Origin: an uncultured Chloroflexia bacterium
GTDB taxonomy: Bacteria; Chloroflexota; UBA6077; JACCZL01
Reading direction: 5' to 3'
DNA: 64,000 bases
Assembly: GCA_963765765.1 (NCBI GenBank)
Contig: CAVXYC010000015.1
Span: 576,001-640,000 of the forward strand
The translations under genes and the position numbers were made by a program. The notes under the pieces were generated by a model that saw nothing but the letters and a program-made list of their open reading frames with translations, was not told the origin of the DNA and ran no database searches. Below, piece after piece: positions 14,885 to 64,000 of this stretch. Every line of letters begins with the position of its first letter. Positions within the stretch are counted from its first letter, which is position 1.

Positions 14885-17800
14885 GTGGGCCTGACCCGTG
14901 TTGCGATATCGCGCCCTGTATTCATGCTCATGGTCATTTTGGCCATGGTGCTGCTGGGCCTTGTCTCCTTTTTCCGACTGAACGCGGAGCTGTATCCGCC
15001 CACCAATACGCCGGTGGTCACCGTCCTCACCACGTACCAGGGCGCGGCGCCAGAAGACGTCCAACGACTCGTCACTGAGCCACTCGAGGACGCCGTAGCG
15101 GGCATAGCGAACGTCGATGTCATTCAGTCGTCCTCGTTCGAGGGGTCATCGCAGGTCACCATCACCTTTACGGATGTGGCCGATATCAATACGGCCGCCA
15201 CGGACGTTGAGCGTCGTATCAGCGCGGTGCGGGCAACGCTTCCGCAGGACGCTGAGTCGCCAACGGTTCTCAAACTTGACCCGACACAGCTTCCGGTACT
15301 CTACCTCACCTACACCGGCACGATGCCGCTCAACGAGCTATTCCGCATCGCCGACGATCGGATCAAGCCGAGTCTGGAGACTCAAAACGGCGTGGGATCC
15401 GTTGACATCACGGGCGGGCTGGAGCGTGAGATACAGGTTCAGGTCAATCCGGACCGATTGCGCGCCTACGGGGTTACGCTCGATCAGATCTCGCAGGCGT
15501 TGAGTCGCGAGAATCAGGGAATCCCTGGGGGATCCATCGAACGTGGTCGTCAGCAGACAAACCTGCGTCTGTACGGACTCATCCAGTCGGTGGACGAGCT
15601 GCGCAAGGTCACGATTCCCGGCACTCAGGCGTCGCCTCAGCTGGGCGACGTAGCGACGGTTGTCGATACCTACAAGCGCACCACTACCAGGACCTATCTC
15701 AACGGGCAGCCGGCTGTTGGCTTGACCGTGACCAAGCAGTCCGGAGCGAACGAGATTGCCACCGTTGATGCGCTACGCGCGGAGCTGACCCGCCTGAACG
15801 CGACGCTTCCAAACGGATCGTACATTTACACGATTTTGGATACCTCGACGTTCACCCGCAACTCGCTGAACGGTGTTCAGCGCAGCCTGATGGAAGCGGT
15901 GCTGTTGACAGGCCTGGTGCTCCTTGTCTTCTTGCACACCTTCCGCAGTACGGCCATCGTGCTGTTCTCGATTCCGACGTCGTTGATCTCCACGCTCCTG
16001 GTGATGAACTTCCTGGGGTTCACTCTCAACATCATGTCCAGCATGGCGCTGGTACTTGTTGTTGGCGTGCTTGTGGACGATTCGATTGTGGTGCTCGAGA
16101 ACATTTTCAGGCACCTCGAGCACGGCACAAACCCGCGCGAGGCCGCCATTCGGGGCCGCAGTGAGATTGGGCAAGCAGCCATTGCTATCACGCTCGTTGA
16201 CGTGGTCGTCTTTACGCCCGTCGCCTTTATGTCGGGCACAGTTGGGAGTTTCTTCCGCCAGTTCGGCCTCGTCATAGCGGCCGCGACGCTGCTGTCTCTA
16301 TTCATCTCGTTCACATTGACGCCATTGTTGGCCTCGCGGTGGCTGCAGCCAGCGGGGGTAGACGAACCGGATAATTTCCGGTGGCGCTGGAGTCGTGCGT
16401 TCGAGCGATTTATGGATCGCCTGCGACAGCGATATGAGCGAGCGCTCGGATGGGCGCTCCGCCACCGCCGGGTACCGCCGCTGGCGGCAGTGGCGATGCT
16501 CATCTTCTCGTGTGCTCTCATTCCGCTGGGCTACGTCAAGGGAGAGTTCATCCCGCAATCCGATAGCGGTTATCTGACGGTGACAATTGAGACGCCACCG
16601 GGCTCCTCATTGGATGCAACCGAGCAGGCGATTCGCGCCGTTGAGGCCCGACTGGCTGCCATCCCGAGATCCAGTACTACCTATCCACTCCCGGCACCGG
16701 CGGTACAAATTCAAACGGGCTCTCCTCGCGTAATGCACGATTCGGGCGCATCCAGATCGTACTCGTGGACCTGCATCATCGATCTCGGAGCGTATGGCAG
16801 ATTGCGGATCAGATCTCGGCTGAGACGCAGGCGATACCCGACGCGACGATTCGTGCATCGCTTTCAGGTGGCGGCGGAACAGCCCCTGTCCAGGTTCTCG
16901 TGACCGGCGAGGCGCCTCAGGAGGTCGAGTCACTGGCGGCGCGGGTAGAGGAGATGGTGCGTAACGTCCCGGGCACCCGCGACATTACCAACAGCGGCTC
17001 GCGGGCAAACCCTGAAACGAGACTCGTGCCAGACCGAGATCGGTTGTCCGACTTTGGTGTCTCGGCTCAGCAGGTGGCGCTGGCACTGAGGACGTCGGTT
17101 GAAGGCCAAGTGGTGACCGAGCTGCGTCCTGAGGGCGTACCCGAGGTGGACGTGCGTCTCATTGCCGAAGACGCCTCGCGAGATAGTCTGATGAACCTCG
17201 GCAGCTTACCGGTTGTGGGAACACGTCGCGGAGCACCTGTGACGGTGATGTTGAGTCAGCTCACGAGCATCGAGCAGGTCGTTGGGCCGGCCACAATCGA
17301 TCGTCGAAATCGACAGCCGGTGATCACTATCGGCTCGGGGCTGGCGGGCAACACGCCGCTTGGTGAGGTGACTGGGCCTATTCAGCGGGGCATCAATGAG
17401 ATGCGAGCGCGGGGTGAAATCCCCGGGGGCTATAACGTGCAATTCGGCGGTCAAGCCGCCGATCAAGCCAAGGCATTCGACCAGTTGCTCCTGGCACTTG
17501 GGCTCTCTGTCATCCTGGAGTACATGCTGCTCGCGGCGCTTTACGAGAGCGTCATCCTCCCGTTCGCTACGATGTTCGCGCTACCGCTAGCCATCATCGG
17601 CGCACTGCTAGCGTTGGCAGTCACGGGTAACACGCTGAACCTGCTGTCAATGATCGGCGTTGTGGTGCTCATGGGATTGGTTGGCAAGAACGGCATCCTG
17701 CTCGTGGACTACACCAATTCGCTACGGCGCGCTGGCGAGCCACGCCCTGATGCGTTGCGTCAGGCGGGGGGAGCGCGCCTCCGGCCGATCCTGATGACCA

Positions 17801-18112
17801 CGATGGCCTTGGTGTTCGGCATGATGCCACTGGCGCTTAAGCTCGAGGAGGGATCCGAGATCTACGTTGGTATGGCCACCGTAATCATCGGTGGCATGTT
17901 GAGCTCAACGTTTCTGAGCTTGCTCGTGGTTCCTTGCATGTACACGTACTTCGGACGATTTCCAGACCTTAATGGTGCCCCTGCTCCGCTGGCGCCCATT
18001 CCGCCGCCGTCCGAAATCTCCGCCGCCCGCGCCTAGCCCGTTCCCGACGACGCCATACTCCGAGCCCGCCCCGCGATTTGAGCGGGAGCACGTCGGTTCC
18101 GGCCGCAGGTAG
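14885..18112 (+). CDS. RND efflux permease (AcrB/SwrC-like), frameshifts near 16667 and 17953
   Basis: RVAISRPV, GVLVDDSIVVLENI, GKNGILLVD and RLRPILMTT motifs; ORFs 14885-16903 and 16765-18036; corrected tail ends at TAG 18110-18112. Confidence 0.9.
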
Positions 18113-43360: not shown

Positions 43361-44446
43361 TTAGTGCGTTCCGTTGCCGTTGCCGTTGGTGACCCATCGG
43401 CCTACGCACACGCCGCAGCCGGTACCGGCCGGGGAGCGGTAGCCTGGCTGATAGGTCATGACTTCCATTTTCGTGTCGCCCATCGCGCCCGCGGCGGCTA
43501 CCCAGTTCAGAATCTCCGTTGTGGCTGACTGCAGCTTGTAGCGCGGGAGTGTGCTGAGAATGTCGCCGTTGGCTTCGGTGAGACCCTTGATAGCGAGCCG
43601 ATCGATCTCTTCGTCAACGGTGAAGTGGCTCAGACCGCCGGACGTGATCACGGCCACGCGCACATCCTTGTCCCAGTTCAGAATCGCCTCATGGACCTGG
43701 CGACCTAGCGCATACGCACGGCGGGGGCTGATCCAATTAGGCGGGTAGCAGGTGTTGATCGTGATCGGCACCATCGGAGGTCGCTTGCCCTTGAACCAGC
43801 GGCACACCGGAAACGAGAAGGCATGCGGCATGCCTTGACGTCGCGGCTTCACGTTTCGCTGTGAATCCAGGTACCACGTCGCTGGGCCGATTGTCCCGCC
43901 GTACTCTTCTTTCATATAGCGCTGTTGCGCCACGTCAAAGTCATGCTCCTGGAGCTCTTCGATAATGTGCAGACCGAGATCCTGCTCAATTGGGTAGACG
44001 ATCTCTTCGGTGCCATACACTGACGCGGCGATTGACACGGCCGCGGTCATGCCGGGCCGGTTGTTGATGCGCGGATAGTGAGTAAGTGTCTCGCCCCAAT
44101 AAACGCTGATCATCGGATAGTTGTCGTCGAAGAAGAACTCGCCCTGATCATCCCCAATGGCGACGACGACGTCTGGATCACACTCCGCGAAGGCTTCGCC
44201 CAAACGATCGAGCCCGTCTTGAATCGCGGCGTACTTGCGCACGAAGATCGATTCGTCAATGTGCTCCTCGGCGATCTTGGGATCTGCCGTGGCAAGGAGC
44301 TCGTCATAGGGCACACGCTTGCCATCTCGCGGTCGGACGAGCTCACGATTCCGCGTGTCATCGTCCGCTCGCTTGGCCCAGTCCTCGCCGGGAAGACTCA
44401 TGAGCGGTGTGTGTGATGAAGCAAAGCCACCAACGATAGTTGCCAT
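43361..44446 (-). CDS. LigB-family (class III) extradiol ring-cleavage dioxygenase-like protein
   Basis: MATIVGGFASSHTP, DVVVAIGDDQ, PHAF, VAVITSGGLSHF, TEILNW, YRSPAGTG. Confidence 0.8.
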   Translation of the reverse strand: MATIVGGFASSHTPLMSLPGEDWAKRADDDTRNRELVRPRDGKRVPYDELLATADPKIAEEHIDESIFVRKYAAIQDGLDRLGEAFAECDPDVVVAIGDDQGEFFFDDNYPMISVYWGETLTHYPRINNRPGMTAAVSIAASVYGTEEIVYPIEQDLGLHIIEELQEHDFDVAQQRYMKEEYGGTIGPATWYLDSQRNVKPRRQGMPHAFSFPVCRWFKGKRPPMVPITINTCYPPNWISPRRAYALGRQVHEAILNWDKDVRVAVITSGGLSHFTVDEEIDRLAIKGLTEANGDILSTLPRYKLQSATTEILNWVAAAGAMGDTKMEVMTYQPGYRSPAGTGCGVCVGRWVTNGNGNGTH

Positions 44447-44745
44447 ATGCGACGACCTCCATATAGGTCCCAGCGGACTTTCCAGCTGGGAGAGCGCGTT
44501 CAACCTGGACAGATATCAATCACTCGGTATATGGCACAAGTGTAATCCCGCGTGCCATTACCGCGCATCTTGAAATCTACCGCTTGCTTGACCTGTCGTC
44601 AATTGCAGTTGTTGTTGCCTAACGTACCGATGCGGGATTTGGCCTGCGACTATCGAATTGTGTCATCAAGGTTACGGCTGACTCTGCATATAGCTGGGCA
44701 GATTGGGTAGCCCCTCAAGGCCATGCGGTCCTGGCGACTGCAGCG

Positions 44746-50536: not shown

Positions 50537-51518
50537 TTAGGGATACTGGCTTGCAGTGGCTTTGAGCCCTGCCTCGGCGCTGCTCCGTTCTTCATCCGCC
50601 AGCGACTCCAAAAGCCGCGTCACCGCGATGGCCGCGGTGGTCGCATCGCCGGTGGCGTTGGTAATTTGACGAACGAATTGATGTCGAACGTCCCCAGCGC
50701 AGAAGATACCCGGCTGGGAAGTCTCCATCTTATCGTCGGTGATGATGAAGCCCATCTCATCTTTCTCGATCGGGTCACGAAAGATATTGCTGGTGGGATC
50801 AAATCCTACATAAATGAAGATTCCGCCGACCTCGACCTCTTTCTCTGTCCCGTCCACGACGTTCTTCGTTTTGAGCTTTTGAACCTTGCCTTCGCCAATG
50901 ATCTCTTCGATGATCGTGTTCCAGACAACTTCGATCTTCTCGTTGGCAAAAAGACGCTCCTGCAGGACGCTCTCAGCGCGTAATTTATCGCGACGGTGGA
51001 ACAGCAGGACCTTGCTTGCATAGCGTGTCAGAAACGTCGCTTCCTCAACGGCGGCGTCGCCACCGCCCACGACCGCAAGGACCTGTCCACGGAAGAACGC
51101 GCCGTCACAGATGGCACAATACGACACGCCTCTTCCACCGAGCTCCGCCTCGCCCGGGCACGCCAAGTTTTCGAGGCGTTCCGCCACTGCAAACGATGAC
51201 GGCTTTAGCCCGATACTCGTCACCTTCGTCTGTTTTGACGACTTTCTCTTTACCGTCGGTGTAGATCTCCGTGACGGTGCCGTATTCAATTGTGGCCCCG
51301 AATTCAAGCGCCTGCTCCTCGAAGACCTGTGCCATCTCGTGCCCGGTGATGCTCTTGAAGCCGGGATAGTCCTCGATGAGCTCGGTGTTCAACAGCTCGC
51401 CGCCAGGGCCCATCTTCTCCACGATGATCGTGCTGAGGTTGCCTCGGCCCGTGTAGAGCGCCGCCGTTAGGCCAGCCGGGCCCGCGCCAACGATCACCAC
51501 GTCACTCGTTTTTTCCAT
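50537..51518 (-). CDS. trxB: Thioredoxin reductase (frameshift ~51157)
   Basis: GAGPAGLTAALY, GVSYCAICDG, VGGGDAAVEEA, HRRDKLR, AGDVR. Confidence 0.95.
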
Positions 51519-55285: not shown

Positions 55286-57571
55286 GTGAACGTGGCGCAG
55301 TTTGTCGATCGCTTCCTCAGATCATCGTCCGCCCGAGCCAACGTCACTTCCGTCCAGCACCTTGCGCCTCAGCCTGCGCAGTGGGCCGAGTTCCCTCCAG
55401 GAATCGACGCTCGCCTGACCGCGGCGCTTGCGCGCCGGGGCGTTCAGCGACTCTACACGCACCAGGCCGAGGCCATTGATCGGGCTATGGCTGGTGAAAA
55501 CGTCGTCACTGTCACTCCGACCGCTTCAGGCAAGACGCTTTGCTACAACGTGCCCGTCCTTCAATCGGTCCTTAATGATCACTCGTCGAGGGCACTCTAC
55601 CTCTTCCCTACTAAGGCGCTTGCTCAAGATCAATTGCGCGAGCTCTCGGGGTTGGTAGACACCTTGGACGTGGACATCAAGGCGTACACGTACGACGGTG
55701 ACACGCCGGCGGATGCGCGAAGGGCCGTGCGCGCGGCCGGCCACATTGTCGTGACGAATCCGGACATGCTCCACACGGGTATTCTCCCGCATCACACGCG
55801 CTGGGTACGGCTCTTCGAGAATCTGCGCTATATCGTCATCGACGAGCTTCATCAGTATCGTGGAGTGTTCGGGAGCCACCTGGCCAACGTACTGCGCAGA
55901 CTTCTCCGCATCTGCGAGTTCTATGGAGCGTCGCCAAAGTTCATTTGCAGCTCGGCGACGATCGCCAATCCCGATGAGCTGGCCGTCAGACTCACCGGAC
56001 AGCCCTTTCGACTCGTAAACAAAAATGGTGCTCCGACCTCCGAGAAATTCATCCTTTTCTATAACCCGCCGGTGGTGAATCAGCAGCTCGGAATACGGGC
56101 AGGCTCCTCGCAGACCTCGCGCCGACTCGCGGGCGAGCTTCTGGCGAACGACATTCAGACGATCGTGTTTGCGCGAAGCCGCCTGGGCGTGGAGATTCTC
56201 GTCAGCGAGCTAAAGCAGCTCGCCGCCTCACGCGGCACGTCGCCGGACGTTGTCCAGGGCTACCGCGCCGGTTATTTGCCAAATGAACGTCGCGCCATTG
56301 AGCGCGGCATCAAAGACGGGCAGATCCGTTCAATCGTGGCCACCAACGCGCTCGAGCTCGGCGTGGATATCGGCGGACTGGAGGCGGCCGTGCTGAACGG
56401 CTATCCGGGCAGTATCGCTAGCGCCTGGCAACAAATGGGGCGCGTGGGACGTCGAGAAGGCACATCGCTGGCGATCTATGTGGCGAGTTCATCGCCGCTG
56501 GACCAGTTTCTTGTTACACGCCCGGATTACTTTTTCTCGCAGTCACCCGAAGCCGCCCTGGTGCACCCAGACAACCTCGTGATCCTGGCAAACCACCTGC
56601 GCTGTGCGGCCTTCGAGCTGCCGTTCAACCAGAGCGAACGATTTGGCGAGAACGAATCCACCGAAGAGATTCTGGAATTTCTAGCCGAGGAGCAGGTGGT
56701 GCGTCACGCGGGCGGTCGGTGGTTCTGGATGTCCGAGCGATATCCCGCCGAGGGGCTTAGTTTGCGTAGCGCGGCGATCGATAACTTCGTCATCATCGAG
56801 TCCGGACCTCGCCCGCGAGTCATTGGTGAAATGGATCGCGCATCGGCGCCCATGTTGATCCACGAGGAGGCGATCTACATTCATCTGGGTCAGCAGTATC
56901 AGGTAGAGAAGCTGGACTGGGAAGAGAAGAAGGCGTTCGTCAAGGCCGTCAACGTGGACTACTACACGGATGCCGAGATGGCCGTTGATCTGAAAATTCT
57001 GGACATTTTTGCCGAGACCGAGGCTGAGTCGCCGAGAGCCGCTCACGGTGAGGTGAGCGTGACGGCCCAGGCAACGATCTTCAAGAAGCTCAAGTTCGAT
57101 ACGCATGAGAATATTGGCTGGGGAAAGATTCAGCTCCCGGAAGAAGAAATCCACACTTCGGCATTCTGGATGGCGATCCCGGCCAGAAGTGTCGCCGACA
57201 TGCCGCGAGCCGCATTGGAGAGTGGGCTCATGGGCATGGCAAACCTGCTGGTGAATCTTGCGCCGCTCTTTCTCATGTGCGACCCTCGCGATCTTCGGTC
57301 CGAGACAGAGATTCGTTCGCCTTTCACGGGAGAGCCGACGGTGTATCTCTACGAGCGCAATCCGGGTGGCGTCGGGCTCTCTGAGAAGCTCTTCTACACT
57401 CGTCGCCAGCTCATTCAGTCCGCGCAGGATCTGTTAACCGGTTGCGCGTGTCCAAATGGATGCCCGTCGTGTGTCGGCGCCCATCACCTCGTGGGCTTCG
57501 ACGGGAAACCGTCCACGCTGGAGCTATTCCGTCGAATGGGCGTTCAGAGTCAGCGGCACGCGATCGCATGA
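55286..57571 (+). CDS. mrfA: DEAD/DEAH helicase with DUF1998 (MrfA/YprA/SftH/Hrq1-like)
   Basis: TASGKT, DELH, SAT, QQMGRVGRR; C-terminal MCDP..CACPNGCPSC cysteine motif. Confidence 0.88.
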   Translation: MNVAQFVDRFLRSSSARANVTSVQHLAPQPAQWAEFPPGIDARLTAALARRGVQRLYTHQAEAIDRAMAGENVVTVTPTASGKTLCYNVPVLQSVLNDHSSRALYLFPTKALAQDQLRELSGLVDTLDVDIKAYTYDGDTPADARRAVRAAGHIVVTNPDMLHTGILPHHTRWVRLFENLRYIVIDELHQYRGVFGSHLANVLRRLLRICEFYGASPKFICSSATIANPDELAVRLTGQPFRLVNKNGAPTSEKFILFYNPPVVNQQLGIRAGSSQTSRRLAGELLANDIQTIVFARSRLGVEILVSELKQLAASRGTSPDVVQGYRAGYLPNERRAIERGIKDGQIRSIVATNALELGVDIGGLEAAVLNGYPGSIASAWQQMGRVGRREGTSLAIYVASSSPLDQFLVTRPDYFFSQSPEAALVHPDNLVILANHLRCAAFELPFNQSERFGENESTEEILEFLAEEQVVRHAGGRWFWMSERYPAEGLSLRSAAIDNFVIIESGPRPRVIGEMDRASAPMLIHEEAIYIHLGQQYQVEKLDWEEKKAFVKAVNVDYYTDAEMAVDLKILDIFAETEAESPRAAHGEVSVTAQATIFKKLKFDTHENIGWGKIQLPEEEIHTSAFWMAIPARSVADMPRAALESGLMGMANLLVNLAPLFLMCDPRDLRSETEIRSPFTGEPTVYLYERNPGGVGLSEKLFYTRRQLIQSAQDLLTGCACPNGCPSCVGAHHLVGFDGKPSTLELFRRMGVQSQRHAIA

Positions 57572-58837
57572 CCACCGCGACCGCGCCCCGCATTTCGGCT
57601 GACCGTCTCCGGACAGCCCTGGGTACGCGGGACCCTAAGCGGGCCCCTCAGCCTGCGCCTCGACGTCATGCCGCGTTGGAAGCGCTCTACCCGGGGCGCG
57701 AGATCGAGAACGAGTATGGACGGTGCTTCGTTGCCGAATGGACGTTTCCACTCGAGCACCCGCACGGCCGTCAACCGCTCGAGCAGGCATTGCTGCTGAA
57801 TGATCGCGGAGCGGCCTGTATTGGGCGGGCCCTGGGGTACAAGGCCCCTGAACGCCCCGCGTTCCTGGACACTGAAACCACTGGGCTTTCCGGTGGCACG
57901 GGAACGTACGCTTTTCTCGTGGGCATCGGGTCTATCGAGGGCGATGCCGCCATTGTTCGGCAGTACTTCATGCGCGACTACGACGAAGAGCCCGCTCTGC
58001 TGGAGGCGGTGTCACAGCAGCTCGCGCGGCATGATGCTGTCATCACCTACAACGGCAAGACCTTTGACCTTCCACTCATCGAGACCCGTTTCATCGCCTC
58101 CCGCCGATCCACTGACGTCATCCCGCCGTCGCATCTGGATTTGCTCTTTCCGACACGACGGCTTCTTCGAGGCTTTCTCGAGACATGCACGCTGGCCAAC
58201 GTCGAGCGATCGGTTCTACGTCATCATCGAGTGGGGGACCTGCCGGGTTGGATGATTCCGTCGTTGTACTTTCAGTTTGTTCGTGAAGGTGACCCACGTC
58301 TGATTGGTGGCGTGTTAGAGCACAACCGAGACGACATCTTGAGCCTTTTCGGGCTCACGGGCTGGCTCTGCCGCGTTTACCAGTCGCCCACCGAGAGCCG
58401 ATGCGACGCCCGACTTCTCACGCGAGTGTCCAGGACGTACGAATTGCTGGGCTGGCGAGATGAAGCCGTGCGTGTGCTCAGCTCACGCGGTCTCCGAAGC
58501 CTCGTCGGGAGATGGCCGTGCGGAGGCCGCGCTGGACCTGGCTCGGCTGCATCGGATGATGGGGGCCGGCGAGGACGCAGAGCCAATGTGGCACATCGCG
58601 GCGGAGCATCCCGCGCTGGGATTGGAAGCGTTGATCGCCTGGGCGAAGTATCTCGAGCACGAGCGGCGGGACTTCGATAAGGCACAAGGTGTGCTGGACC
58701 GAGCGCTCGTTCGGATTCAGCTCAGGTACGGTCCATCGCCAGATGCCGCGATCGACGCTCTCCGCCAGGCGCTCGAGTATCGACTTGCCCGAATCGTGCG
58801 TCGCCAAGGGCGCCGAGATCCGTCCGGCATGAAGTGA
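57568..58837 (+). CDS. mrfB: RNase_H_2/DEDD exonuclease with TPR-like tail (MrfB/YprB-like; frameshift ~58485)
   Basis: FLDTETTGL, TYNGKTFD, HLDLL, HNRDD, AKYLEH; ATGA overlap with the helicase. Confidence 0.85.
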
Positions 58838-58912: not shown

Positions 58913-60013
58913 CTAAGACCGATCGGGCGCGGGCTCGTGGAAGATGGTTTGCCAAAGACTCGCGGTGAATCGAAGGACGATCATGCTTGCCAGAGCGGTA
59001 GATGCGGCGGATAGTCCGGTCCAGATCAGTTTCTTGCGGGCACCCGGATCTCGGGTTGTAGTCGGTCGCACCGGCACTAGAGCCGGTGCTGGTGCAGGTT
59101 GGGCAGTTTGCGGTTTCGTCCCCTGCTCCAGTTTTGTCTCCGTACTAATCGGAACGGCACCTGCACTCGGAACGATGCGACTCCCGCGCTGCCGTGCATA
59201 AACCTGGGTAAATTCCGCTCCAAAGAACAGAATCTGGGCCGAGTAGTAGACCCACACCAGAAACACAAGTAGCGAGCCCGCGGCCCCGTAGGTCGAACCG
59301 ACGCTTGCATGACCGAGATAGATGCCGATGAGCGTCTTGCCAATGACGAAGAGCAGCGCCGTTACGGCTGCACCCACCCACACGTCAGACCATCGCACCT
59401 CCACGTCCGGCAGCACCTTGTAAATAGCCGCGAACAGGAGTGTGATGATTGCGAACGACAACACCACATTGACGATCTGCCAGAAGGCGTTTGATCCCGG
59501 CAAGATGTCTCCAAGGAAGTTGCCCACGGCGGAGATCGTGGCGGTTAACGCTAAGGAGACGAGAAGAAGGAAACCGACCCCCAGTACCATCGTCAGGGGC
59601 ACGATTCGGCGCTTTACTGTTCCAACAATTCCGGACGGTGCTGGCTGCACCTCCCAGATGGTGTTGAGGGCATCCTGAAGCTGACCGAACACATTGCCCG
59701 CGCTCCAGATCAGTGTTGCGATCCCGATGATCGCCGAAATGCTGGAAGCACCCGGTTCGCGTGAATTGGCAATTGCGGACTGAAAGAAGCCCGCCGCTTC
59801 CGGCCCAAGTAGCCCTTCAAGCTGGTAGAAGATCGTGCCTCGTGCGGCCTCATCACCCAGAAAGATTCCTGCAATGCTGATGATGAGAAGCAGCAGTGGT
59901 GCGATGGAGAACGCCGTGTAATAGGCGAGGGCTGCAGCGAGGCGTGAAGCCTTGTCGCGCTGCCATTCGCTGAATGACTCCTTGAGGAGGCCGAGAGCGT
60001 TCAGGTGATCCAC
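58913..60013 (-). CDS. YihY/BrkB family membrane protein
   Basis: AAALAYYTAFSIAP, LQDALNTIW, YKVLPD, YGAAGSL, WVYYSAQILFFGAEF. Confidence 0.92.
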   Translation of the reverse strand: MDHLNALGLLKESFSEWQRDKASRLAAALAYYTAFSIAPLLLLIISIAGIFLGDEAARGTIFYQLEGLLGPEAAGFFQSAIANSREPGASSISAIIGIATLIWSAGNVFGQLQDALNTIWEVQPAPSGIVGTVKRRIVPLTMVLGVGFLLLVSLALTATISAVGNFLGDILPGSNAFWQIVNVVLSFAIITLLFAAIYKVLPDVEVRWSDVWVGAAVTALLFVIGKTLIGIYLGHASVGSTYGAAGSLLVFLVWVYYSAQILFFGAEFTQVYARQRGSRIVPSAGAVPISTETKLEQGTKPQTAQPAPAPALVPVRPTTTRDPGARKKLIWTGLSAASTALASMIVLRFTASLWQTIFHEPAPDRS

Positions 60014-60124
60014 GACATCCACTCCTTCCGCGAGCACATGTAATCACACATCTAAATGCAGAATTCACACCATGCTGTGAGCCAATAGTCGGCATGCGCT
60101 TTGCAGCAGAGGTCGCACGGAGAG

Positions 60125-60922
60125 ATGGAAAACGAGCACGTTCGCATGGGGCAGCGAACAGAGCCAGCCTGGCTCGAGCTGCAATCAATTCGATGGGAGC
60201 CGGCAGGGCGCGCGCTGCTGAGCAACCTCGGTGATGGAGCGGGGCTCCATGCTGTGGACGTCGGCTGTGGGGACCTGGGCTGGTTACGTGTGTTGAGCGA
60301 GTGGGTGGGGCCGGATGGCTCAGTGACAGGTACCGACGTAGGTGACGATCTCATTGAGGCCGCGCAACGTCGGATCGAGCAAGAAGATCTTTCGAATGTC
60401 ACCGTGGTACGCGATGATTTGTTCGATTCTCGACTCCCAGCCAGGAGTTTTGATCTAGTTCACGCTCGATTCGCCGTCACTCCATTGGATCGCGTGAATC
60501 AGCAGCTCGAGTCGTATCTGAGACTCCTCCGGAGCAGTGGCCGGATTGTCCTGGAGGACAACGACATCGGCTCGTGGCATTTCAATCCGCCGGCGCCCGC
60601 CACGGAGCGTTTGATTCATCTCATAGCCGAGTCGTTTCTCGCAGCCGGTGAGAGTTTCAACGATGGCCGGCGGCAGCCCCAACGGCTTCGTGAGCTGGGA
60701 TTGGAGCCACACGTCTCGGCACAGGTACTGGCGCTGGCACCCGCGGATCGGTATTTGCGCCTCCCCATCCACTTCACATTCACGCTCGAGGATCGGCTTT
60801 TGAAGCTGGTTACAACTGACGAGCTGGAAACTCTGAGGCAGCAGGCAGAAGGGGAGATCGCCTCACCGGGTCGATGGGGCACCACGTTCACAGTGATTCA
60901 GAGCTGGGCGGTAGTGCCCTGA
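60125..60922 (+). CDS. Class I SAM-dependent methyltransferase
   Basis: AVDVGCGDLG, VTGTD, FDLVHARF. Confidence 0.85.
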   Translation: MENEHVRMGQRTEPAWLELQSIRWEPAGRALLSNLGDGAGLHAVDVGCGDLGWLRVLSEWVGPDGSVTGTDVGDDLIEAAQRRIEQEDLSNVTVVRDDLFDSRLPARSFDLVHARFAVTPLDRVNQQLESYLRLLRSSGRIVLEDNDIGSWHFNPPAPATERLIHLIAESFLAAGESFNDGRRQPQRLRELGLEPHVSAQVLALAPADRYLRLPIHFTFTLEDRLLKLVTTDELETLRQQAEGEIASPGRWGTTFTVIQSWAVVP

Positions 60923-61004
60923 GCTCTCGCAACCGCGATAGTGGGATGCTCACCGCTAGGCTGAATCATGGAGCGACACGTTCGAGCGTGCCACCCCATG
61001 AGAC

Positions 61005-61166
61005 TTATTTCTTTTTGGTCTCGCCAGCCTCGCGTCGTTCTTTGTTGACGGTGCGAGCCGCACGCTCTTCAGCTTCATCTTTGGAGACCCCGCGCTCTTC
61101 GTAGGAGTCTTTAATGTGCTCGTACTGACGGTCGCGTTTGCTACCTTCTCTCACTCCGCGTGGCAT
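61005..61166 (-). CDS. 53-aa conserved small basic protein
   Basis: GGAGG RBS; MPRGVREGSKRDRQYEHIKDSYEERGVSKDEAEERAARTVNKERREAGETKKK; too short for the ORF track. Confidence 0.7.
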   Translation of the reverse strand: MPRGVREGSKRDRQYEHIKDSYEERGVSKDEAEERAARTVNKERREAGETKKK

Positions 61167-61557
61167 GGTTTACCTCCCTTTCGCTGCAATGTTGCAGATA
61201 TTGGACCGTCCGAATCCCAACATTAGTGAGGCATGGAGGTGGCGCGGGCTCGGCGGTGCCAATCGCGGTCGCTTGGTGTCCGGTGGCAACGCTGAAATCG
61301 TCGGTTAAGGCACGCTACATTTGGAAATCCGGCCGCATTGTAGCGTGGCCGAGATCAACTATTTGGTCTCTAGACCCGAGAATGACAGTGGAACTGGGTG
61401 GCCGGTACCGCGGGAGCGTAGCGAGTATCGAAGAACGCCAGCCTTCGGGACCACGGCCATCCAGCGGCCCGGCCCCGGAGGGCCGCCTCCGACCAGAGCT
61501 GCCAACACAGGAAGGTCCCTAGACGGCGTCACTTTGTCTATCGCAGACGAGCGACGA

Positions 61558-62210
61558 TTAGTGCGCTTCGCTCAGTGCCCCAAGGCCCGCCTGGCAGGCG
61601 AGGTGGTCCTGCTCCGTGGTGGGGCTGCCGGCCACTCCGATGGCAGCGACGATCTCGCCTAGCTCCACCAGCGGTATAGCTCCCTGCTCGATGAGCAGGC
61701 GAGCGGGAACCACTTCCTCGTCCGCCGGAGGCTCCTGGTCGGCTTTGAGCTGGTTAGTGCCCAGGCGGAAGACCAGCGAGGTGTAAGCTTTGCGATCGGC
61801 CCGCGCAGCGGCGGAGCGTTCGGTGCCCGGCATGGCCATGGATGCCACAGACTTTCCGCCGCGATCCAGCACCACAGCCGCAACCGTAAGGCCGATTCGC
61901 TCAGCGTATGCCTGCACTCCATCCAGCATGCGCTTGGCGGATTCCACCGCGAACCTCTGCTCGGCCTTGTTCTCCGTGAAGAAGTCTGCATTGATCTGAA
62001 TATATTGCTGCCACTGCGCTGGCACCTCGGAGTCTAGAAAGACGGCATCCACGGGGCACACCAGCACGCACTGCTCGCACTCAATGCACACGTCCGGATC
62101 GATGTAATTCTGGGGGAGTCCGGTGTCGTGTGGATGCACGCCGCCGGGCAAACGTCCACGCAGGCGCCATTCTTTTCGTCGATGCACGGCTCCACGATGA
62201 CATAGGTCAT
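61558..62210 (-). CDS. 7Fe-type ferredoxin fused to a GlcG/HbpS/PduOC-like domain (frameshift in G-run 62112-62116)
   Basis: MTYVIVEPCIDEKNGACVDVCP..IDPDVCIECEQCVLVCP..NADFF, then VAAVVLDRGG..KAYTS..GAIPL..AIGVAG..EQD. Confidence 0.8.
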
Positions 62211-62809
62211 GGCGTTGGCTCCAGCGCATCTGGCTCCAGCGGCAGCTCAGTCACGATCACCTCCGCGGCGTGCACGCATGGTCGCAGCCGAGGGCTCTCC
62301 AGTCGCCCCTCGGAGTTCATCGTGCCGAGGCCGGCAATCGCCGCCAGGCGCTCGGCATCCATCGTTTTGGATCTGTTGGCTCGATAGCCCATCTCGCGTA
62401 TGTACGCCGCCAGGTTGAAAGTGGCAAACAGGCCCTTTACCGTAGGTGCCTGGCCACCGCTTCCGGGCGCTGTGCGGGTATCGTGGTCGGCCTGGAGCAA
62501 TGAGACGATGCCGAAGAAAGGGCCTGCGGCACCCGGGGCGTCCTCAAACGGGCTCGCCGCTAGCTGAACGATACCCACCTCGTTGATGCCGAGATAGTGT
62601 CCCAGCTCCTTGACATGGCTGGCCATCACGTTGGCTGAGTGGACCTCAGTACGCGTGGGATGCACCGAACCCTCTTCCGCGTCCGCCATCGCTAACGTCA
62701 CCACGTTCCGCGCGTCGGCGGGCGGCCGGTTGATGAACGCGTCCCAATACGGGTCCTCGGGCTCAGTGTGCCGAATCCTGAACGGACCGATCCGCATGGC
62801 AGCCCCCAT
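62207..62809 (-). CDS. Reductive dehalogenase-like cobalamin-fold domain without Fe-S motifs
   Basis: MASHVKELGHYLG..VGI, LAAYIREMGY, AAIAGLG, IVTELPLEPD* parallel the upstream gene and stop where its Fe-S domain begins. Confidence 0.65.
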   Translation of the reverse strand: MGAAMRIGPFRIRHTEPEDPYWDAFINRPPADARNVVTLAMADAEEGSVHPTRTEVHSANVMASHVKELGHYLGINEVGIVQLAASPFEDAPGAAGPFFGIVSLLQADHDTRTAPGSGGQAPTVKGLFATFNLAAYIREMGYRANRSKTMDAERLAAIAGLGTMNSEGRLESPRLRPCVHAAEVIVTELPLEPDALEPTP

Positions 62810-64000
62810 CAGCTCAACTTGACGAAGCGGTTGGTGTTCTCCTTCAGCGGCGCGTAGTAGCCGATGTCGTCCAGCGGCACGTCGATCTTGTGCTCGCCTT
62901 CACCGTGCTGCGCTGTACAGCCGGCGACGGTACACGCCATGGAGCCGGGCTTGATCCCACTGTCATAGCCCAGCCAGCGCACCCGCTTGCGCGGCACCTT
63001 GCCCCAGAAGCGATCATCGATCCACTTGAGCGAGCGCACCAGCGCTGGCCTCGCCTTTACGGGCGTGTGCTTCAGCGTCTGCACTGTCATCGTTCGCCAC
63101 CAGGTGTTCGGCTTGGTGAACGGGCAGACCGTGGAGCAGGTGAGGCAGACGGACCAGTGATCCGTCATGAGCGGCCGAAGCTTGTAACACGGCTCCCACT
63201 TGATCTTGTACTTCTCAACGCCGTTGTAGACCTGCTTCCCTTCAAAGGAGATGCTGTTGGTAGGACAGGTCTCGGCGCACTTACGGCAGATCTTGCAGAA
63301 ATCCTCAACGCCGATGTCGATCGGCTTGTCAGGCACCAGCGGCAGATCGGTCAAGATGGCGTCGTTCAGATGAATCCGGGCGCCAAACTCCTCGGAGATG
63401 ATCAAGCCGTTGCGCCCAAGCTCGCCGATGCCGGCCGCCAGCGCCGCGGCCTGGGGATTCACCTTTCCGCGGATGGCGGTGTAGCCGAGTTCGCGAATGT
63501 AGCCCTCGAGCTGCGTCAGTACGAGTCCCAGGTTCATGAGTGTGAACTCATACGCGGCATCGCCGATGTGATGGCGATGCGCCTGGGCCATCTCATAGTT
63601 CCAGGCCACGGGCGTGACCAGGACGTATGGATATGCCGTGCACAGCTCTTCCTGGGTCATCGTGCCGTCGTCGACGCTTGTGCGGAAGCCCACATCGTGC
63701 AGCGCGCCACCGCCGTACAGGAACGATGGGTGGGAGCGAGCCACGCCAACGATATCCGCGCCGAACGTCTTGGCCACCCGTTTGATGTGGCCAGTCATGA
63801 CGGCTGGATCCGCGACGGGCGTGCGCTCGGGATTAGTGCTGCCCTTCTTAAGGCCGCGCAGGTGGGCCTGAAAGACGTTCTTGTTATCGCGCCCGCGATT
63901 TGGGGAATTGATGCGGCTAAGAGGATCCTTACTCACGCTGTTGCGGTACCAGTTGAACAGCGACTTGCCCACCTCACCGCGCGACACGCGCGGGTGCGGC
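62809..64000 (-). CDS. Reductive dehalogenase (RdhA/QueG superfamily) B12 and 2x[4Fe-4S] enzyme; frame open to window edge
   Basis: FGADIVGV, YIRELGY, AGIGELGRNG, LTDLPLVPDKPID, FCKICRKCAETCP, C-x13-CLTCSTVCPF. Confidence 0.85.
   Translation of the reverse strand, partial: PHPRVSRGEVGKSLFNWYRNSVSKDPLSRINSPNRGRDNKNVFQAHLRGLKKGSTNPERTPVADPAVMTGHIKRVAKTFGADIVGVARSHPSFLYGGGALHDVGFRTSVDDGTMTQEELCTAYPYVLVTPVAWNYEMAQAHRHHIGDAAYEFTLMNLGLVLTQLEGYIRELGYTAIRGKVNPQAAALAAGIGELGRNGLIISEEFGARIHLNDAILTDLPLVPDKPIDIGVEDFCKICRKCAETCPTNSISFEGKQVYNGVEKYKIKWEPCYKLRPLMTDHWSVCLTCSTVCPFTKPNTWWRTMTVQTLKHTPVKARPALVRSLKWIDDRFWGKVPRKRVRWLGYDSGIKPGSMACTVAGCTAQHGEGEHKIDVPLDDIGYYAPLKENTNRFVKLS

Follow-up and report, generated by a model that had tools for sequence, protein, structure and literature searches.

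The soluble reductive dehalogenase NpRdhA of Nitratireductor pacificus (PDB 4RAS, 6ZXX) has neither a twin-arginine translocation (Tat) signal nor an RdhB anchor, joins in one chain a catalytic core and a cofactor-less duplicate core, and has ferredoxin genes nearby. Its vestigial domain mimics the dimer interface of the respiratory enzyme PceA (PMC10463259). Other cytoplasmic homologs of RdhA that have neither Tat nor RdhB have been described, namely a simplified cytosolic type (PMC12219181) and RdhA proteins of Dehalococcoidia and Desulfatiglans (PMC4959651, PMC6129605), and QueG, cytoplasmic too and built on the same fold for cobalamin and two [4Fe-4S] clusters, acts on a non-halogen substrate. 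Here we analyse a three-gene operon at the end of a 64,000-nt stretch of DNA from an uncultured Chloroflexia bacterium (GCA_963765765.1, CAVXYC010000015.1, positions 576,001-640,000; 'the window' below), in which an RdhA-like enzyme and an iron-sulfur (Fe-S)-less duplicate of its cobalamin-binding core are encoded separately. The order on the minus strand is gene 1, gene 2, gene 3:

62809..64000, minus strand: gene 1 (alpha), a cobalamin and two-[4Fe-4S] enzyme of the RdhA clade, whose first 60 residues lie beyond the window
62207..62809, minus strand: gene 2 (beta), a 200-aa free-standing Fe-S-less duplicate of the cobalamin-binding core
61558..62210, minus strand: gene 3, a fusion of a 7Fe-type (FdxA-like) ferredoxin with a GlcG/HbpS (DUF336) domain, frame-broken in the assembly

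As a sequence-only reading of this DNA had pointed out, TGATG and ATGA overlaps couple the three genes: gene 1 reads without a stop from the edge of the window as far as a TGA (62811-62809) that the ATG of gene 2 overlaps, and the end of gene 2 overlaps the ATG of gene 3 at 62210. In our view the operon very probably specifies an RdhA-family cobalamin reductase that is soluble, heterodimeric and not respiratory; it is real, conserved in many uncultured bacteria and an apparently undescribed variant of a known enzyme kind. That its substrate would be an organohalide, reductively dehalogenated in the cytoplasm, we regard as an evenly balanced proposition.

Gene 1 had been described as RdhA-like with two Fe-S motifs and a CTVAGCTAQH tail, and this description stands. 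Its product narrowly passes the RDH model TIGR02486 (161.3 bits, cut-off 160.35), and carries CxxCxxCxxxCP and C-x13-CxxCxxxCP motifs in addition to the tail. The database protein P0080 (456 aa, 163.3 bits on TIGR02486), which has 5 mismatches to gene 1 over 396 positions (99% identical), supplies the 60 missing N-terminal residues and has a single core with no in-chain vestigial domain; three of four other core-family members tested score just under the cut-off (138.8-154.3 bits). Best PDB sequence matches are PceA, with the top score among PDB chains, and NpRdhA, to which identity is only about 30%. The structural model of alpha (predicted local distance difference test, pLDDT, 82) matches NpRdhA residues 269-638 best (Z 32.1, root-mean-square deviation (rmsd) 3.1, 344 residues aligned), followed by 8Q4H (PceA2B2; Z 30.7) and PceA (Z 29.0), and ESM Atlas places gene 1 in generic RdhA clusters. 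QueG, unlike these, is distant in structural match (Z 13.9) and profile score (65.9 bits on TIGR00276, failing a cut-off of 200), gene 1 is without the DYH motif present in QueG rows, and the tree described below sets the two apart: gene 1 is not a member of the QueG group. From fold and motifs, alpha would carry one cobamide and two [4Fe-4S] clusters, and beta none. Since the N-terminus lies outside the window, the sequence-only reading had allowed for a Tat signal there; P0080, however, fills the gap without one, and the twin-arginine pattern occurs in none of the 120 best gene 1 homologs, a few of which are N-terminally incomplete.

Gene context was taken from a GTDB scan with the family alignment, in which the best 80 of 147 confirmed matches gave 79 loci, a sample biased to the core clade. 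By record name, their hosts are Binatota (19), Chloroflexota (17), Thermodesulfobacteriota (7), Rokubacteria (7), Myxococcota (5) and five other phyla (7), with 17 records lacking a phylum; closest among the matches listed (69-71% identity) are Chloroflexota, which by itself would place the window probably in that phylum. Gene 2 lies directly downstream of gene 1 in 77 of the 79 loci, with a 1-base overlap in 41 of the 77. Exceptions are L045, whose contig ends 78 nt after gene 1, and L011 (1-1949), which has ferredoxin-GlcG ahead of gene 1, where the contig begins, and no beta after it; this may be a rearranged operon that the contig start has truncated. Pairwise identities of the partners track those of gene 1 (Spearman 0.90 for gene 2 and 0.92 for gene 3, over 30 loci taken as every other eligible one). 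The lack of an RdhB gene downstream of the operon, noted before for the window (whose DNA ends within gene 1), extends to the relatives: a small open reading frame (ORF) with two transmembrane segments was seen in only 2 of 79 loci, in each case some 2 kb or farther beyond gene 1, while three of three known-locus controls for the RdhB position were detected. Respiratory RdhA (PceA of Sulfurospirillum, PDB 4UQU) shares the core and the Fe-S motifs with alpha but has Tat and RdhB. A tblastn search of plasmids found no record covering 80% of the query.

The description of gene 2 as a 200-aa paralog of the cobalamin core without its Fe-S domain is upheld by homology and by motif absence: it shares 26% identity with the gene 1 core (E 2e-12; profile-profile probability 99.9), ends before the Fe-S domain and, throughout 68 family rows, never shows CxxCxxC. 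It matches no Pfam family and, up to E=1, no PDB sequence; ESM Atlas gave unnamed clusters plus one weak RdhA-fragment lead at 0.86. The model of beta (pLDDT 86) is best matched by NpRdhA residues 42-221, the N-terminal duplicate domain of that enzyme (Z 16.8, rmsd 3.1, 162 residues aligned), with PceA (Z 12.5), QueG (Z 10.9) and CblD (Z 7.7, a score that common arrangements also reach) behind. On its B12 side, the hairpin is degenerate, in that E, R and N of GELGRNG are not kept and 19 of 68 rows have it deleted, which is consistent with beta having lost cofactor binding. Gene 2 is under purifying selection (median ratio of nonsynonymous to synonymous substitution rates, dN/dS, 0.20 versus 0.17 for gene 1; the 785 pairs, drawn from 69 loci, are not independent).

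Where does such a partner come from? In the catalytic-core tree (58 rows; all trees were run in quick mode) the family forms one clade (support of 96 in the Shimodaira-Hasegawa-like approximate likelihood ratio test, SH-aLRT), and stands separate from QueG (100), BhbA-type catabolic enzymes (100) and the respiratory references. A tree of the cobalamin-core domain (69 rows, 181 columns) was cut with a beta-derived hidden Markov model (HMM) and has no rows of QueG or Dehalococcoides, which gave no match to the beta profile; four long or partial rows were removed before the approximately unbiased (AU) test. Here, betas are sister to the core of their own family (SH-aLRT 97) and the vestigial domains of catabolic enzymes to catabolic cores (99), and the AU test rejects uniting betas and catabolic vestigial domains in a single clade (p=0.0013). 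Given this grouping and the rejection, the best reading of beta is a duplicate of independent origin, never fused and kept as a separate gene, rather than a split NpRdhA. So of the 'split' soluble heterodimer with ferredoxin put forward by the sequence-only reading, the heterodimer and the linked ferredoxin gain support from synteny and the complex model, while fission of an NpRdhA-type chain is not supported by the trees and the AU test. Among longer or fused forms, five matches were found and none is an alpha-beta fusion of the family (weak evidence). A neighbouring RdhA clade that keeps the catalytic Tyr (P0301, P0353, P0354) also holds P0236 and P0350, in which a degenerate core is fused N-terminally, probably a third independent vestigial duplication. 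P0273 holds two complete RdhA units in a single chain of 685 aa, and both units have Fe-S motifs.

In support of alpha-beta binding, complex prediction scored 0.88 versus 0.00 for the best control, with runs agreeing in at least 96% of contacts and a partner pLDDT of at least 86; that mark is reached by 116 of 157 solved pairs and by 2 of 215 mismatched ones. Equivalent helices of alpha and beta oppose each other in the model, consistent with a pseudo-two-fold dimer, so that a heterodimer with an inactive partner is predicted here as opposed to the homodimer of respiratory RdhA. The model supports binding, albeit short of showing it. Two further features bear on the predicted interface:

62905..62934, minus strand: C-x4-C-x3-H tail of gene 1, which may form a metal site together with His57 of gene 2 (C416 and C421 in 89/89 family rows, H425 in 88/89)
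62639..62641, minus strand: His57 of gene 2, invariant in 68/68 close beta rows

C416, C421 and the partner residue H57 are in the predicted interface list, and the tail region has low pLDDT. The Cys tail and beta His57 occur together in 74 of 79 loci; both are absent in L077, the tail appears frame-shifted in L074 and three loci are without readable beta. A Cys2His2 metal site shared between subunits may be envisaged from this, a lead based on a single case of joint loss and on a part of the model with low confidence. L077 (9938-12796) belongs, with P0271, P0351 and P0352, to a deeper family branch without the Cys/His tail, and its beta has Ser for His57.

The ferredoxin fusion attributed to gene 3 is real; it is, however, not one open frame in the window, and its partner, which had gone unnamed, is a GlcG/HbpS (DUF336) domain (PF03928, 71.8 bits, gathering score 25), Fer4 being matched as well. 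Best PDB matches are 7Fe-type ferredoxins and, for the C-terminal domain, HbpS, EfgA, OrfY and NahX. Residues 1-34 lie in one frame and the remainder in the other, and the switch falls at

62112..62116 (plus-strand coordinates of the run; gene on the minus strand): five-G run where gene 3 shifts frame, a probable sequencing indel; in tblastn with the intact L002 gene the two frames meet here.

A trxB gene (50537-51518), a resistance-nodulation-division (RND) permease (14885-18036) and apparently an exonuclease-like gene (57442-58837) are also frame-broken in the window. The assembly seems indel-prone and, given the breaks in trxB and the permease, that in gene 3 is probably a read error too. 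Elsewhere a ferredoxin-GlcG gene comes next in 62 of 65 loci with room for it and is one intact ORF in 61 of the 65, L001-L003 having it in frame. Moreover, in 59 of the 74 loci that have room for it, a stand-alone GlcG/HbpS gene immediately precedes gene 1, which makes for a four-gene operon in most hosts: it is highly conserved in L009-L079 and absent in L001-L008. As these eight head the list of loci, the window may likewise have no such gene ahead of gene 1. The upstream protein of L028 matches OrfY, NahX, PduOC, EfgA and HbpS. Heme or cobalamin binding would go through a His in helix 1 (His18 in PduOC); such a His is present in 59 of 60 upstream proteins, not aligned with His18 of PduOC, and the fused domain in the window has no His in that helix. 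Described DUF336 proteins differ in role: heme is a ligand of both HbpS and PduOC, and HbpS also takes up aquo-cobalamin (PMC4923194), while EfgA is a formaldehyde sensor unrelated to B12 (PMC8153426); unlike them, the domain is here fused to a 7Fe-type ferredoxin and tied to RdhA. L004 (7379-9340, minus strand) has a second, divergently oriented alpha-beta pair beside its main operon, and L045 (2599-3555, minus strand) a tandem two-domain HbpS-like gene divergent from gene 1 and near a Rieske gene.

Besides the frame break and the GlcG/HbpS domains, the sequence-only reading had missed that the canonical catalytic Tyr/Lys pair is replaced. In NpRdhA, Y426 and K488 are the proton-donor pair and S422, K488 and R552 bind the phenol (PMC7565698). 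Columns were mapped by sequence alignment with PDB chains, not by structural superposition; a K488Q PDB chain marks the K488 column, and one pairwise alignment used was shifted by one residue. The relevant features are:

63550..63579, minus strand: family motif HRHHIGDAAY (P0080 residues 201-210); H201, R202, H203, D207 and Y210 in 89/89 rows
63370..63372, minus strand: His270, in the column of NpRdhA K488; His in 88/89 rows
63121..63297, minus strand: two Fe-S motifs (79/79 loci) with R335, the equivalent of NpRdhA R552, between them (89/89 rows)

The HRH-x2-GD motif is likewise present in 79 of 79 loci. Y210 aligns to NpRdhA S422 and D207 to A419, whereas the column of Y426 is L214 in gene 1 and Q (46), L (27), G (9) or T (7) across the family, Tyr occurring in 0 of 89 rows. 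All ten catabolic and respiratory RdhA rows keep the catalytic Tyr, as do most other RdhA rows; P0284, the nearest outlier to the family, is likewise without it. The simplest inference would be that the proton donor has moved by one helical turn, to the earlier-lying Y210, but different chemistry is equally compatible with the sequence.

Outside the operon, neighbour clustering over the 79 loci found nothing conserved, the largest genuine cluster comprising 27 loci. Pfam was run on 81 of 128 candidate flanking proteins (30 loci) and gave six luciferase-like monooxygenases, five Amidohydro_2 proteins, two Rieske proteins, one LigB and solute-binding proteins, a mixed catabolic background too variable to name a substrate. 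No gene for B12 biosynthesis or transport was among the 81, and Rfam gave no match, hence no cobalamin riboswitch, in the 15 of 79 loci tested.

Taken as a heterodimeric reductase, the system might work as follows. Alpha would hold the cobamide and two [4Fe-4S] clusters, while beta, a cofactor-less duplicate of alpha's own core, would take the place of the second protomer in a PceA-type dimer, as the in-chain vestigial domain does in NpRdhA, but as a separate, translationally coupled gene that would have arisen independently. Going by synteny, the ferredoxin of gene 3 would pass low-potential electrons to alpha, and its GlcG/HbpS domain together with the stand-alone GlcG is probably a tetrapyrrole-binding oligomer, perhaps a redox or cofactor helper. 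Co(I) would then reductively cleave a bond in a small cytoplasmic substrate, Y210, H270 and R335 standing in for Y426, K488 and R552 of NpRdhA, and the most likely reaction would be dehalogenation ahead of catabolism.

Several points weigh against this proposal. With the Tyr column devoid of Tyr and the Lys/Arg column occupied by His, while catabolic and respiratory references keep both, dehalogenation is not assured, and the unconserved flanking genes give no substrate. An in vitro reconstitution of an NpRdhA pathway with the ferredoxins from its neighbourhood did not work (PMC10463259), so synteny falls short of establishing the electron donor; furthermore, gene 3 is broken in the window and the second alpha-beta pair of L004 comes without a gene 3 match. 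The passing complex score may reflect memory of the solved PceA/NpRdhA interface, given that the NpRdhA vestigial domain mimics that of PceA. As for origin, one could argue for common descent from the closer structural match of beta to the NpRdhA vestigial domain than to PceA (Z 16.8 versus 12.5), and the trees were run in quick mode on a short alignment (181 columns) that had been cut with a beta-derived HMM.

How, then, do other explanations fare? The several frame breaks in the window could be taken to mean that gene 2 is a decayed duplicate, or its junction with gene 1 a frameshift artefact of an error-prone assembly. This is ruled out for all practical purposes by 79 gene 2 homologs at 44-94% identity, by separate beta genes in 77 of 79 loci and by purifying selection, to which the lack of a fused alpha-beta form among the five longer matches adds weakly. 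Highly improbable, too, is an origin of beta by fission of an NpRdhA-type two-domain chain, even though NpRdhA 42-221 is its best structural match and the nearby clade has fused two-core proteins (P0236, P0350): the tree placements (97 and 99) and AU test speak for separate origins, alpha precedes beta in reverse of the NpRdhA order, and the N-domains of P0236 and P0350 score below their own catalytic cores on the beta profile. Somewhat less remote, though still improbable, is a cobamide-handling or redox-recycling module, a cobalamin reductase or chaperone like the same-fold CblC-CblD pair or PduO/PduS, with GlcG/HbpS carrying a tetrapyrrole. One or two GlcG/HbpS domains in nearly every locus, relatives with heme or aquo-cobalamin as ligand and a place in B12 operons (PMC4923194), and the likeness of beta to CblD would fit. 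However, the flanking proteins scanned include no B12 biosynthesis or transport genes, the loci tested have no riboswitch, alpha retains the full substrate-pocket architecture of RdhA, and DUF336 proteins also serve roles unrelated to B12 (EfgA, PMC8153426).

The more serious challenge concerns chemistry rather than architecture: the same heterodimer may not be a dehalogenase, its His-rich site (HRHHIGDAAY, H270) instead reducing a non-halogenated bond (epoxide, C-O, C-S or N-O) of a common natural metabolite, as QueG acts with the same fold. Family-wide replacement of both Tyr and Lys alongside five invariant motif residues speaks for this, 51-71% identity over many phyla suggests one common substrate, and no dehalogenation-pathway gene is among the conserved neighbours. 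On the other hand, the family is nested in RdhA and far from QueG, the R552 equivalent is retained, and an invariant Tyr occupies the position of S422, which lines the NpRdhA active site, so the proton donor may simply have moved. To our minds non-halogen chemistry is the less probable option, yet one to be reckoned with. A bolder form of it, in which an RdhA-derived heterodimer has left dehalogenation altogether, its His-rich, Tyr-shifted B12 site acting on a non-halogenated metabolite, beta being clamped by a Cys2His2 site (alpha C416, C421 and H425; beta H57) and a ferredoxin-GlcG/GlcG oligomer serving as dedicated electron or cofactor relay, we hold to be unlikely. If true, it would give DUF336 proteins a defined redox role.

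Returning to the RdhA-type heterodimer, NpRdhA remains its best fold match for both subunits, with the R552 equivalent in common, yet the duplicate is a separate downstream gene here, the Y426, K488 and S422 columns hold Q/L/G/T, His and Tyr, and the Cys/His tail and GlcG/HbpS partners are extra. The catabolic type (NpRdhA, BhbA) is also marked by ortho-halophenol specificity and by an electron supply, ferredoxin or PDOR, encoded alongside; the operon shares the latter trait as far as gene linkage goes. The simplified cytosolic RdhA-like proteins (PMC12219181; also PMC4959651 and PMC6129605) resemble alpha in size (about 400 aa), in having no Tat, RdhB or in-chain vestigial domain, and in Chloroflexota and Desulfobacterota hosts, but the available text describes no separate vestigial subunit or GlcG partner, a distinction drawn from descriptions. 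One supplement of PMC12219181, as text, makes no mention of GlcG, DUF336, HbpS or heme-binding, and a literature search, with most subscription journals outside its reach, found no account of a free-standing vestigial subunit or an RdhA-GlcG link.

Should the proposed architecture hold, a B12 dehalogenase design of one active plus one dead protomer would have evolved on two occasions or more, within a single chain in NpRdhA and by means of a separate gene here, with P0236/P0350 as a possible third case. Genes of this family are auto-annotated as reductive dehalogenase, QueG or ferredoxin and would be counted as dehalogenation potential in soils and sediments, although the usual catalytic pair is missing from them and their expression probably depends on a partner annotated as 'hypothetical'. 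Being soluble and coming with a ferredoxin, such an enzyme may also be a tractable route to the roles of cytoplasmic RdhA homologs and of GlcG/HbpS in redox pathways.

A scan of 60900-64000 for promoters and terminators found none. Downstream and outside the operon lie an S-adenosylmethionine (SAM) methyltransferase (60101-60922, plus strand) and a YihY/BrkB-family membrane protein (58913-60037, minus strand), neither a conserved neighbour. Farther off, the window encodes a class III extradiol (LigB-like) dioxygenase (43361-44503, minus strand), whose N-terminus is very similar to that of its counterpart in L065 (6041-7108); in L065 the dioxygenase gene is a short way upstream of the operon, a hint of aromatic catabolism in these hosts.

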